4,590 nucleotides of DNA from a virus (Duplodnaviria; Heunggongvirae; Uroviricota; Caudoviricetes), in the IMG/VR virus record IMGVR_UViG_2734482538_000008. One strand, written 5' to 3'. This document shows positions 80-4,590 of this stretch, piece after piece. The notes under the pieces are model-generated. The model was not told where the DNA came from and searched no databases. It worked only from the letters and a program-made list of their open reading frames with translations. Positions within the stretch are counted from its first letter, which is position 1. The number at the start of each line of letters is the position of its first letter. The translations under genes were made by a program, and so were the position numbers.

Positions 80-782
80 GTGTCCGTTAAACTCAGGCTA
101 CCTCAGGTTATTCGCTTCTGGGCATGGGCGGATCAACAAATGATAGACGGTAATGCAGATTGTAACGCTCGCGGCGTTACAAAAAGTGCAATAGATCGCA
201 TCACTTTTATGTCTGGTTTTGCTGATGCGTTAATTCAGGTTGGATGGCTGGTCGAAAATGACGGAGGGCTTTCTCTACCTAACTTTGAACGTCATAACGG
301 AAAAAGCTCTAAAAAAAACGGGCGGTTACAAACGAGCGAGTAACAAAAATACGCGAACTGAAACGAAAAGGTAACGCTGCCAGCGTTACACAAACGGATC
401 AAAAAGCGTTACCAGAGGAAGAGGAAGAGGAAGATCTAAATACTGATCTCCCCCTCGCCAAAAACGAGCGTCTAAAAAATTCGAGCCGGAGGCTATTGAG
501 CTGCCCGATTGGTTGCCGGAAACACTCTGGCATGAGTGGGTCCGGTTCAGACAGGCATTGCGAAAACCGATTCGAACGGAGCAGGGCGCTAACGGGGCGA
601 TACGGGAACTGGAAAAATTCCGTCAGCAGGGTTTTACACCTGAGCAGGTGATTCGACACAGCATCGCCAATGAATACCAGGGCCTGTTCGCGCCGAAAGG
701 TGTTCGGCCTGAGACGTTGCTCCGACAGGTTAACACCGTCTCGTTGCCGGACAGTGCGATCCCGCCAGGCTTCAGGGGGTAA
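80..782 (+). pseudogene. Phage replication initiator (O-like / replisome-organizer type); reading frame broken twice as sequenced
   Basis: Frame-2 ORF 80-343 (GTG start at 80, AGGAAGGA at 72-79) ends ...GWLVENDGGLSLPNFERHNGKSSKK. Protein-like translation then continues in frame 1 (about 319-477: RAVTNERVTKIRELKRKG...EEEEEEDLNTDLPLAKNERLK) and in frame 0 (about 478-782: KFEPEAIELPDWLPETLWHEWVRFRQALRKP..., stop TAA 780-782). Both frame switches fall at homopolymers: A8 at 311-318 and the C5/A5/A6 runs at 450-479. The stop lies 6 nt before the helicase-loader ATG, the usual initiator/loader arrangement. Domain family is pattern recognition only. Confidence 0.55.
162..412. repeat. Cluster of dyad-symmetric GTAACGC / GCGTTAC repeats (iteron-like, candidate replication origin inside the initiator gene)
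   Basis: Two full 19-bp palindromic sites, GTAACGC-tcgcg-GCGTTAC (162-180) and GTAACGC-tgcca-GCGTTAC (371-389). An extra GCGTTAC half-site sits at 406-412 and a weaker GTTAC...GTAAC pair at 325-344. That is five exact copies of one 7-mer (either orientation) within about 250 bp, where well under one is expected by chance. I found only one other exact copy in the window (2365-2371). Confidence 0.4.
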
Positions 783-788
783 CGGACC

Positions 789-1540
789 ATGAAAAATATT
801 GCGACAGGCGGCGTTCTGGAACGCATCCGCCGACTGACCCCGCCACATGTAACCGCCCCATTCAGAACGGTAGCGGAGTGGCGCGAGTGGCAACTTGCTG
901 AAGGCCAGAAACGTAGCGAGGAGATCAACCGCCTGAATCGCCAGTTGCGGGTGGAAAAAATTCTGAATCGCTCAGGCATCCAGCCGTTGCACCGTAAATG
1001 CTCGTTTGCGAATTACCAGGTGCAGAACGACGGCCAGCGATACGCGTTAAGCCAGGCGAAATCCATCGCCGATGAACTGATGACCGGGTGTACAAATTTT
1101 GCGTTCAGCGGAAAACCTGGTACCGGGAAGAATCACTTAGCGGCAGCTATCGGGAATCGCCTGCTGAAAGACGGTCAGACAGTGATTGTGGTTACCGTGG
1201 CTGATGTTATGAGCGCCNNNNNNNNNNNNNNNNNNNNNNNNNNNNNNNNNNNNNNNNNNNNNNNNNNNNNNNNNNNNNNNNNNNNNNNNNNNNNNNNNNN
1301 NNNNNNNNNNNNNNNNNNNNNNNNNNNNNNNNNNNNNNNNNNNNNNNNNNNNNNNNNNNNNNNNNNNNNNNNNNNNNNNNNNNNNNNNNNNNNNNNNNNN
1401 NNNNNNNNNNNNNNNNNNNNNNNNNNNNNNNNNNNNNNNNNNNNNNNNNNNNNNNNNNNNNNNNNNNNNNNNNNNNNNNNNNNNNNNNNNNNNNNNNNNN
1501 NNNNNNNNNNNNNNNNNNNNNNNNNNNNNNNNNNNNNNNN
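789..1540 (+). CDS. DnaC/IstB-family replicative helicase loader (phage P-like; resembles Rac YdaV / E. coli DnaC from memory); 3' end inferred
   Basis: ATG at 789 is 6 nt after the initiator stop. The visible 143 aa (789-1217) include Walker A FSGKPGTGKNHLAAAIGNRLL (GKPGTGKN at 1110-1133) and ...TVIVVTVADVMSA, closely matching the DnaC P-loop region as I remember it. The gene runs into the N-run at 1218. The end coordinate of about 1540 is an estimate from the typical family length of roughly 245-250 aa, not observed. Confidence 0.85.
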
Positions 1541-2561: not shown

Positions 2562-3248
2562 ATGACCCCAATAAACATATTTATGACAGTTGCTGATTTC
2601 AAACGGCCCAAATTGGAGCTCCCAAACGGGGCAAACAAACTACTACTGCACTCTTGCTGTGCTCCATGTTCCGGTGAGGTGATGGAGGCGCTTCAGGCCT
2701 CGGGAATCGACTACACCATCTTTTTCTACAACCCGAACATTCATCCTCAGAAAGAGTATTTAATTCGTAAGGATGAGAATATTCGCTTTGCTGAACAACA
2801 CGGCGTGCCGTTTATTGATGCTGATTACGACACAGACAACTGGTTTGAACGAGCCAAAGGAATGGAATGGGAGCCCGAACGAGGGATCCGTTGCACCATG
2901 TGTTTTGACATGCGTTTTGAGCGGACAGCGCTGTACGCCGCTGAAAATGGTTTCAGTGTGATCAGCAGTTCACTGGGCATTTCACGCTGGAAAAATATGC
3001 AGCAGGTTAACGACTGTGGGCGGCGAGCCGTCGCGCATTATCCGGGCATGGTGTACTGGGATTATAACTGGCGCAAGCAGGGCGGCTCGTCCCGTATGAT
3101 TGAAATCAGCAAGCGCGAAAAATTCTATCAGCAGGAATATTGTGGCTGTGTGTATTCTCTGCGCGATACCAATCTACACCGCAAATCTCAGGGACGCCCT
3201 CTTATCAAAATTGGTCAACTCCACTACGGTAAAGAAGAGAAGGAGTGA
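2562..3248 (+). CDS. queH: QueH-like epoxyqueuosine reductase homolog (DUF208 family), 228 aa
   Basis: Translation carries the N-terminal [14 protein letters not shown] motif, then [21 protein letters not shown] and QEYCGCVYS. This cysteine pattern is what I recognise as the DUF208/QueH family. Assigned from memory of the family, not from a search. Start could be ATG 2562 or ATG 2583; neither has a clear SD. Stop TGA at 3246-3248. Confidence 0.8.
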
Positions 3249-3395: not shown

Positions 3396-3681
3396 NNNNN
3401 NNNNNNNNNNNNNNNNNNNNNNNNNNNNNNNNNNNNNNNNNNNNNNNNNNNNNNNNNNNNNNNNNNNNNNNNNNNNNNNNNNNNNNNNNNNNNNNNNNNN
3501 NNNNNNNNNNNNNNNNNNNNNNNNNNNNNNNNNNNNNNNNNNNNNNNNNNNNNNNNNNNNNNNNNNNNNNNNNNNNNNNNNNNNNNNNNNNNNNNNNNNN
3601 NNNNNNNNNNNNNNNNNNNNNNNNNNNNNNNNNNNNNNNNNNNNNNNNNNNNNNNNNNNNNNNNNNNNNNNNNNNNNNNNN
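3396..3681. other. Run of 286 N (assembly gap or masked sequence)
   Basis: Directly visible. It lies between a candidate promoter plus hairpin (3270-3354) and an intrinsic terminator (3712-3763), so whatever that unit encodes is hidden. Confidence 0.99.
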
Positions 3682-4211: not shown

Positions 4212-4565
4212 ATGGCACATATACAACTGGTCAAACAAACCTCTTCCGGATTACTTCTCCCGGCGACGCCGGAGAGTTGCGATTTTCTGCATCAAATCAA
4301 AATAGGTGAGTGGATACACGCAGACTTTAAGCGTGTGTGTAACTACGCATTCCACAAGCGTTTTTTCAAACTCCTGCAACTGGGTTTCGATTACTGGACT
4401 CCGGTCGGTGGGGCGATCACGCCTCGCGAACGAAAACTGGTGTCCGGTTTCGTTGATTACCTGTGTGAATCAGTAGGCCGGGAACATACGCCAGCTCTGA
4501 GCGAAGCCGCAGAGCAATTGAGGTGTACTGGCAATAGCGGACACTACCATTTGTTCTTTTTTTAA
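4212..4565 (+). CDS. Hypothetical nin-region protein, possibly YbcN/DUF1367-like (117 aa as sequenced; may be truncated)
   Basis: GGAGA at 4201-4205 sits 6 nt before ATG 4212. Translation MAHIQLVKQTSSGLLLPATPESCDFLHQIKIGEWIHADFKRVCNYAFHKRFFKLLQLGFDYWTPVGG... resembles my recollection of DUF1367/YbcN-type prophage proteins (low certainty). The TAA stop (4563-4565) uses the last base of a T7 run (4557-4563). Confidence 0.55.
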   Translation: MAHIQLVKQTSSGLLLPATPESCDFLHQIKIGEWIHADFKRVCNYAFHKRFFKLLQLGFDYWTPVGGAITPRERKLVSGFVDYLCESVGREHTPALSEAAEQLRCTGNSGHYHLFFF

Positions 4566-4590
4566 GCAGCCATCTGATGATATTTTTCCC

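Follow-up and report, generated by a model that had tools for sequence, protein, structure and literature searches.

The 4,590-nucleotide stretch of viral DNA analysed here (Caudoviricetes; IMG/VR record IMGVR_UViG_2734482538_000008), referred to below as the window, carries the remnant of a ydaU-like replication initiator gene, and within this gene lies a set of 7-bp GTAACGC half-sites, some of which pair into perfect palindromes. Judged from sequence comparison with relatives, these half-sites are almost certainly a real cis-element, kept by purifying selection at the DNA level independently of coding. They are best read as part of a lambda-style origin placed inside the initiator gene, of a variant that appears undescribed: the half-sites are probably the binding sites (iterons) of the initiator itself, and together with an adjoining segment of purine tract, GATC-containing A/T-rich stretch and C-tract they would form the phage origin.

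GTAACGC palindromes in the initiator gene

The palindrome GTAACGCNNNNNGCGTTAC, which a preliminary description of the window had reported twice, is present in exact form at both places (162-180 and 371-389). Its expected count is 0.10, two or more matches occurred in none of 200 dinucleotide-preserving shuffles, and no further match was found in the window even with three mismatches permitted. The additional half-site reported at 406-412 was also confirmed as an exact GCGTTAC, and five of the six exact GTAACGC/GCGTTAC 7-mers of the 4.6-kb window fall inside 162-412. The degenerate copies fared less well. The one placed at 18-24 lies inside an IS600 end and is unrelated, and the one placed at 325-344 holds only in its left part: 324-330 is a half-site in relatives and contains the conserved third base of codon 108 (GTT, Val; entropy 0.31), whereas the GTAAC at 340-344 is not conserved.

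Two elements were absent from the earlier list. The half-site GTAATGC at 150-156 reads GTAACGC in most relatives (+148> in 20+ loci; signed positions are counted from the start codon, with > and < for the two orientations). In addition, a third perfect palindrome, TGTAACGCTGCGAGCGTTACA, lies 32-44 nt 5' of the start codon, beside the ribosome-binding site (RBS), in intact relatives; it was beyond the reach of the preliminary description, IS600 having removed it from the window. Both intragenic palindromes share the same codon register and encode NAxxVT, and the first of them (site 1) encodes CNARGVT in a low-confidence loop of the N-terminal domain whose length varies among homologs.

Conservation of the half-sites at the DNA level

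We compared 22 loci from one-genome-per-species contigs, plus annotated phage records; in all, the half-site positions hold in about 30 related loci and phages, whose initiators range from 97% to 27% protein identity. The GTAACGC-type initiators span 97% to ~31% protein identity to the E. coli protein; their hosts are Shigella, Mixta, Erwinia, Yersinia, Serratia, Pantoea, Pectobacterium and others, and Xanthomonas phage CP2 and Pseudomonas phage VW-6S also belong to this type. In these loci the palindrome occupies three fixed places, namely upstream of the gene, at +148/+160 and at +337 to +412, and relatives down to ~31-45% identity keep GTAACGC at the same positions. The upstream palindrome is missing in several loci (L005, L006, L014, L016, L018, L019, L022 and L024), all of which keep both intragenic clusters.

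Across the GTAACGC-type loci hardly any change is seen in the palindrome arms, in contrast to the hypervariable 5-nt spacer. When 18 diverged genes were aligned by codon, the third codon positions within the arms had an entropy of ~0.3 bit, compared to a mean of 1.40 bits elsewhere (Mann-Whitney p=4e-8), where third positions are near saturation; the conservation at synonymous positions that had been proposed as a check is thus found in the related genes. The refuting case named in the preliminary description, initiator genes of relatives without the palindromes, did not arise. The Ala codon ends in the first nucleotide of the spacer, and this third base varies freely, serving as an internal control. 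Codons 133-147, which contain the lone half-site and the purine tract, are likewise frozen (p=4e-7), and the third-base entropy of codons 135-137 (GCG TTA CCA, the half-site at 406-412) is 0.0. Furthermore, exact half-sites occur at 10.1 per kb between -120 and +520, compared to 0.17 per kb in 113 kb of flanking sequence, which is the chance level. The upstream copy is non-coding, and the copy at 406-412 is read in a different register from the palindromes.

Arrangement of the half-sites and the right-hand element

The half-sites follow a 12-nt phase in the arrangement -> -> <- <- and form two or three clusters ~190-260 bp apart, each with 2-5 half-sites of 7 bp. The upstream half-sites (-56> -44> -32<) end next to the Shine-Dalgarno sequence, site 1 is made up of +148> +160> +172<, a lone < half-site lies at about +334, and the linker cluster comprises (+356) +367> +379> +391< +414<. 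This main cluster and the purine tract that follows it occupy codons ~118-147 of 262, in a predicted disordered linker of the protein.

Purine runs of 15-33 nt were found at this place in most loci, compared to three runs of at least 17 nt in 130 kb of flanks. The tract encodes EEEEEE in enterobacterial genes and REEKRRED in the genes of Xanthomonas, Pseudomonas, Ralstonia and epsilon15; since it is kept while the encoded peptide differs, this points to the DNA rather than the peptide as the conserved object. It is followed across loci by an A/T-rich GATC stretch of 10-17 nt and then by one or two C-tracts. Relatives have two C-tracts (TCCCCCTAAATCCCCCT), of which the window lost one through a 10-bp deletion, a slip between two TCCCCCT repeats. 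The same right-hand element is also present in the ydaU gene of the K-12 Rac prophage, in a Ralstonia phage and in a Phycisphaerae metagenome-assembled genome (MAG).

Several smaller observations concern this segment. An all-purine tract followed by 'AAAGATCCCCCC-N4-5-CCCCCC' recurs from Enterobacterales to the Ralstonia phage and the Phycisphaerae MAG (window 414-456; L001 4308-4360; L028 2865-2890; L033). Three GATC (Dam) sites in the window, at 397-400, 433-436 and 445-448, flank the last half-site and the purine tract, with GATC at equivalent places in many relatives ('cggATCaaaaaGCGTTAC', 'aaaaGATCccccc'); by analogy with other origins, these sites hint at Dam/SeqA control. A DnaA-box scan found no DnaA box in the origin region and no enrichment. 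A minus-strand 'terminator-like' call in the promoter/terminator scan was rejected, as it is merely palindrome 2 plus the complement of the A-rich coding tract.

The initiator protein and its clade-specific half-sites

The initiator has a winged-helix N-domain, in which a beta-hairpin wing comes after a helix-turn-helix (HTH), and a disordered linker joins this domain to a DnaT-like C-domain. The latter (residues ~170-262, window ~513-782) is homologous to the DnaT C-domain (PDB 6aep, 2ru8, 9zbt). PHROG 2509 ('replication initiation protein') is the best match for the protein; the match to PHROG 678, labelled 'O-like', is confined to residues 77-236, and PHROG 6451 matches residues 127-262. 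No Pfam family was assigned at E<=0.01, and the Pfam/NCBIfam search gave only a weak DnaT C-terminal match. The family numbers more than 1200 protein clusters. The initiator gene is the sole gene common to all compared loci, the repressor, ydaT and loader genes being variable.

Divergent initiator clades show the same architecture at the same positions with a different 7-mer. GTCCGCA half-sites at 11-nt phase were found in epsilon15, Pseudomonas phiPSA1 and the Phycisphaerae MAG, and other types are GTAGACG (Ralstonia phage), TGTGACA (Vibrio phage) and TTGCGCT (Akkermansia MAG); some of the other clades carry arrays of three direct and three inverted 7-mers at 11-nt phase. The half-site type follows the initiator tree and not the host. 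Replacement of the 7-mer at the same positions in distant clades fits the expectation for an initiator/iteron pair. Because the arms are conserved at synonymous positions and clade-specific 7-mers take their place at the same positions, the comparative data support the preliminary proposal that these are lambdoid-like, initiator-binding origin repeats of a distinct type.

The YdaU protein of K-12 Rac has the same C-domain; its N-domain is annotated as DUF1376 and aligns poorly with the N-terminal region of the GTAACGC-type initiator. The K-12 Rac ydaU gene has no GTAACGC palindromes, and its linker carries GATGTTCAAAC repeats followed by the same right-hand GATC/C-tract element. These repeats are candidate iterons of oriJ, the origin reported for Rac. 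As a separate observation, six of the 11 near-matches to GATGTTCAAAC in 8 kb lie inside K-12 ydaU, in both orientations (L004 3266-3684).

Some variation was also seen in the initiators themselves and in their surroundings. Some homologs have extra NAxSVT motifs in inserted segments. A common 376-amino-acid variant (proteins P0011-P0058, e.g. P0040) has an insertion of ~115 residues (alignment A2 columns ~203-335) that falls exactly at the C-tract repeats of the right arm of the putative origin and contains GRIDIVV...GIELD; no Pfam match was found for this insertion, and a nuclease-like or mobile element may have entered the origin here. In epsilon15 (L030) and Vibrio phage 1.211.A (L032), a C-5 cytosine DNA methyltransferase gene lies directly 5' of the initiator gene and overlaps it.

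A model for origin function

Based on this architecture, we propose that the winged-helix N-domain would bind each 7-bp half-site: the palindromes would be occupied by dimers, and the direct half-sites beside them, at 12-bp phase, by additional protomers. An oligomeric nucleoprotein complex would be built mainly at the linker cluster (window ~360-412). Two other sites, ~200 and ~400 bp upstream, would be looped in or have an auxiliary or autoregulatory role; these are +148-172 (window 150-180) and -56..-20, just before the RBS, which is lost in the window. The adjacent 21-nt polypurine tract and the short A/T-rich stretch would then melt, and the DnaT-like C-domain together with the DnaC-like YdaV would deliver host DnaB.

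We hold the origin reading to be probable; several points weigh against it. Architecture and comparative data are the basis on which we infer initiator binding, oligomerisation, the place of melting, loading of the helicase and firing of the origin. The linkage between the N-domain and the intragenic sites is physically forced, so their co-occurrence alone is not independent evidence. The GC content of the region is 40-48% in the E. coli type, with no strongly AT-rich DNA unwinding element (DUE). The organization also departs from that of lambda, with 7-bp half-sites at 12-bp phase in two or three clusters ~200 bp apart versus four abutting 19-mers in classical lambda and four to six in the lambda/Stx-phage type. 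A regulatory role instead is conceivable for the upstream copy, which directly adjoins the Shine-Dalgarno sequence. Finally, no description of a GTAACGC-type origin was found in the literature searched, to which access was limited.

A broader reading is possible, and we advance it only tentatively: the elements may represent a widespread, undescribed class of phage origin, in which a winged-helix/DnaT-fusion initiator would polymerise on 7-bp half-sites at 11-12 bp phase (-> -> <- <-) in distant intragenic clusters, opening would occur at a polypurine-polypyrimidine tract instead of an AT-rich DUE, and specificity modules would be interchangeable, with at least five half-site types. As a corollary, E. 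coli dnaT-dnaC would be the domesticated remnant of a phage module that has lost its origin-binding N-domain. If the origin reading proposed above is correct, the origin and the initiator recognition code would be fixed for a large uncharacterised family of phage replication modules, which ranges over Rac-like prophages of E. coli and Shigella, epsilon15-like Salmonella phages and phages of Xanthomonas, Ralstonia, Pseudomonas and Vibrio, and which includes phage TL-2011b, from an O103:H25 isolate of a haemolytic uraemic syndrome outbreak. With at least five naturally occurring initiator/half-site specificity pairs, the family would then lend itself to studying how origin specificity evolves. 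It would also allow a role of the polypurine tract in opening the origin to be tested directly, and would tie phage initiators to DnaT of the host primosome. For annotation, it would explain the recurrent NAxxVT and poly-Glu motifs in these 'hypothetical proteins'.

Alternative explanations

The palindromes might be operators only, at which the initiator or another phage regulator represses or roadblocks ydaU-ydaV transcription, with the true origin elsewhere. Plasmid Rep dimers bind inverted repeats for autorepression, dyad symmetry is typical of operators, intact relatives have one copy immediately 5' of the Shine-Dalgarno sequence and start codon, and the ~200-bp spacing would suit repression by looping. 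However, the promoter/terminator scan found no sigma-70-like promoter near any copy, and the upstream copy, for which such a role is possible, is absent from several loci that retain both intragenic clusters. Moreover, the best-conserved cluster lies mid-gene, joined to a polypurine/AT/C-tract segment for which an operator has no need, and no other DNA-binding gene is common to all loci. We therefore regard operators without an origin as unlikely; this reading allows for a dual role and does not exclude the origin reading.

A second possibility is that the sites are bound not by the initiator but by a host factor or another phage protein, for which the CI/Cro pair and the DUF977 winged-helix protein would be examples. 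E. coli prophages encode several HTH proteins in this neighbourhood, and binding by the initiator is itself deduced from sequence. Against other phage proteins, the neighbouring genes differ among loci and the initiator alone is constant. Against a host factor, GTAACGC is shared by phages of Escherichia, Xanthomonas and Pseudomonas, whereas phages of related hosts whose initiator is of a different clade (epsilon15 in Salmonella) use GTCCGCA, and DnaA boxes are lacking in the region. A binder other than the initiator thus appears quite improbable.

We see still less room for the palindromes acting as hairpins in RNA or single-stranded DNA, with roles in processing, stability or translation control or as primosome/ssi-type signals. 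As RNA, each palindrome is predicted to form a stable fold (-12.6 to -16.3 kcal/mol, z about -3.2 to -3.7), the upstream one ends beside the RBS, and a variable loop is expected if the stem alone matters. Nevertheless, no compensatory change was found in 40 distinct palindromes, the arms being invariant and departures from them mostly breaking the pairing. In addition, the conserved direct half-sites at 12-nt phase and the lone half-site at 406-412 cannot be stem arms, other clades have three direct and three inverted 7-mers at 11-nt phase, and no Rfam 15 match reached the gathering score in the window.

Chance, or protein-level selection on a repeated peptide N-A-x-x-V-T, is hardly credible: the shared codon register of the two intragenic palindromes would suit the peptide, but the palindrome count far exceeds the 0.10 expected, synonymous positions are frozen next to variable ones, which effectively refutes peptide selection, one copy is non-coding and the half-site at 406-412 lies in another register, and the peptide sits in a low-confidence loop and a disordered linker.

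Comparison with known replication systems

Lambdoid phages have their origin midway through gene O, as a set of iterons with an AT-rich tract, and in the O protein of Stx phages extra iterons add residues (PMC7466680). The proposed origin resembles these systems in lying mid-gene, in the part of the initiator gene coding for the linker between a DNA-binding N-domain and a loader-engaging C-domain, in having repeats of internal dyad symmetry, here candidate initiator-binding sequences, with a tract behind them that may melt easily, and in having the loader gene directly downstream; the inserted NAxSVT segments of window-type homologs parallel the residues that iterons add to O. Different from lambda, no O-family N-domain was detected in the window-type initiator (no Pfam family), a polypurine tract, a short GATC/AT stretch and C-tracts take the place of the ~40-bp AT-rich region, the C-domain is DnaT-like, and the partner is a DnaC-like ATPase and not lambda P.

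According to PMC3945230, Rac has an active origin, oriJ. K-12 Rac shares with the window type the operon order ydaS/cro - ydaT - ydaU - ydaV, a nearly identical initiator C-terminal half and ydaV, and the GATC/C-tract element. It differs in its DUF1376 N-domain, which is absent from the window-type protein by Pfam, and in having GATGTTCAAAC instead of GTAACGC.

With E. coli DnaT-DnaC, the window-type module shares the homology of the DnaT C-domain and a gene order, initiator then DnaC-like gene, that mirrors dnaT-dnaC. The DnaT-like C-domain and the adjacent DnaC-like gene suggest shared phage ancestry with chromosomal dnaT-dnaC. DnaT, by contrast, has no sequence-specific winged-helix N-domain and no iterons. 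In DopC, an O-like N-terminus is fused to a DnaT C-terminus, and the authors found no iteron-like sequences in dopC (PMC5509034), whereas such repeats are abundant in GTAACGC-type initiator genes.

Iteron plasmids with a winged-helix Rep protein (pPS10 RepA, F RepE, pSK41 RepA) likewise have a short recognition sequence in direct and inverted orientation and a site beside the start of the initiator gene that could give autoregulation. However, the GTAACGC sites are intragenic, consist of 7-bp half-sites rather than 17-22-bp iterons and come without DnaA boxes, and the structural similarity to the Rep proteins of these plasmids is generic only.

The prophage remnant in the window

The window comes from a Rac-like lambdoid prophage that has decayed to a fragment, replication module included; its features are listed in Table 1. 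The left end of the window is an IS600 end that truncates the 5' end of the initiator gene, homology to intact initiator genes beginning at 105. The right end (~4490-4590) also enters an IS600 end, so that IS600 copies stand on both sides of a prophage fragment of ~4.4 kb. This suggests that the prophage was eroded or rearranged through IS elements, as in Shigella-like genome decay.

Table 1. Features of the initiator region in the window (strand: +, plus; -, minus;., not assigned)
Feature	Position	Strand	Remarks
IS600 end (start of transposase orfA)	1..~105	-	100% identity to 'IS3-like element IS600 family transposase', >3000 E. coli records
ydaU-like initiator gene remnant	105..782	+	codons ~36-262 of 262-aa protein; pseudogene
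Direct half-site GTAATGC (1 mismatch)	150-156	+	12 nt before first palindrome; codons 50-52 (GNA)
Site 1, perfect palindrome GTAACGC-TCGCG-GCGTTAC	162-180	.	same position (+148/+160) in all GTAACGC-type loci
A8 run (A6 in intact genes)	311-318	+	+2 frameshift
Degenerate half-site CGGTTAC	324-330	.	exact GCGTTAC at +334< in 5 loci, 1 mismatch in 6
Site 2, perfect palindrome GTAACGC-TGCCA-GCGTTAC	371-389	.	linker-coding region; core of main half-site cluster
Exact half-site GCGTTAC	406-412	.	other codon register (Ala-Leu-Pro)
All-purine 21-nt tract AGAGGAAGAGGAAGAGGAAGA	414-434	+	adjoins last half-site; candidate unwinding or loading element
GATC-containing A/T-rich stretch (GATCTAAATACTGATC) and one C-tract (TCCCCCT)	433..456	+	two C-tracts in relatives
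ydaV, DnaC-like helicase-loader gene ('ATP-binding protein')	789..1217	+	directly 3' of initiator; enters N-masked 1218-1561

The sequence at 105-782 has 98-99% identity to the 3' three quarters of intact 789-nt genes (L001/L002). In E. coli prophages the intact counterpart lies between ydaT and ydaV, and intact counterparts are annotated as 'hypothetical protein', 'phage replication initiator YdaU family protein', 'DNA replication protein O' or 'primosomal protein I'. The frame breaks mentioned in the preliminary description proved to be the extra AA at 311-318 and the 10-bp deletion after 450 relative to intact genes; these and the 5' truncation make the window initiator a pseudogene. With its initiator truncated and frameshifted, its upstream site lost and one C-tract deleted, the element in the window is a fossil, and it could function only with a matching initiator supplied in trans. 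In defective prophages of this kind, orphan origins may persist and could be fired in trans by a related phage resident in the same cell.

The genes 3' of the initiator are, in order, ydaV, a DUF977 winged-helix gene, a zinc-ribbon open reading frame, queH, a stretch of N and a DUF1367 gene. The window has two runs of N, 1218-1561 and 3396-3681. In the syntenic locus L001, the place of the first run corresponds to the 3' two thirds of ydaV, and that of the second, where the bases are unreadable, to the hokD toxin gene. An intact queH (epoxyqueuosine reductase; 2562-3248), annotated identically in L001, is prophage cargo between the replication module and the hok position.

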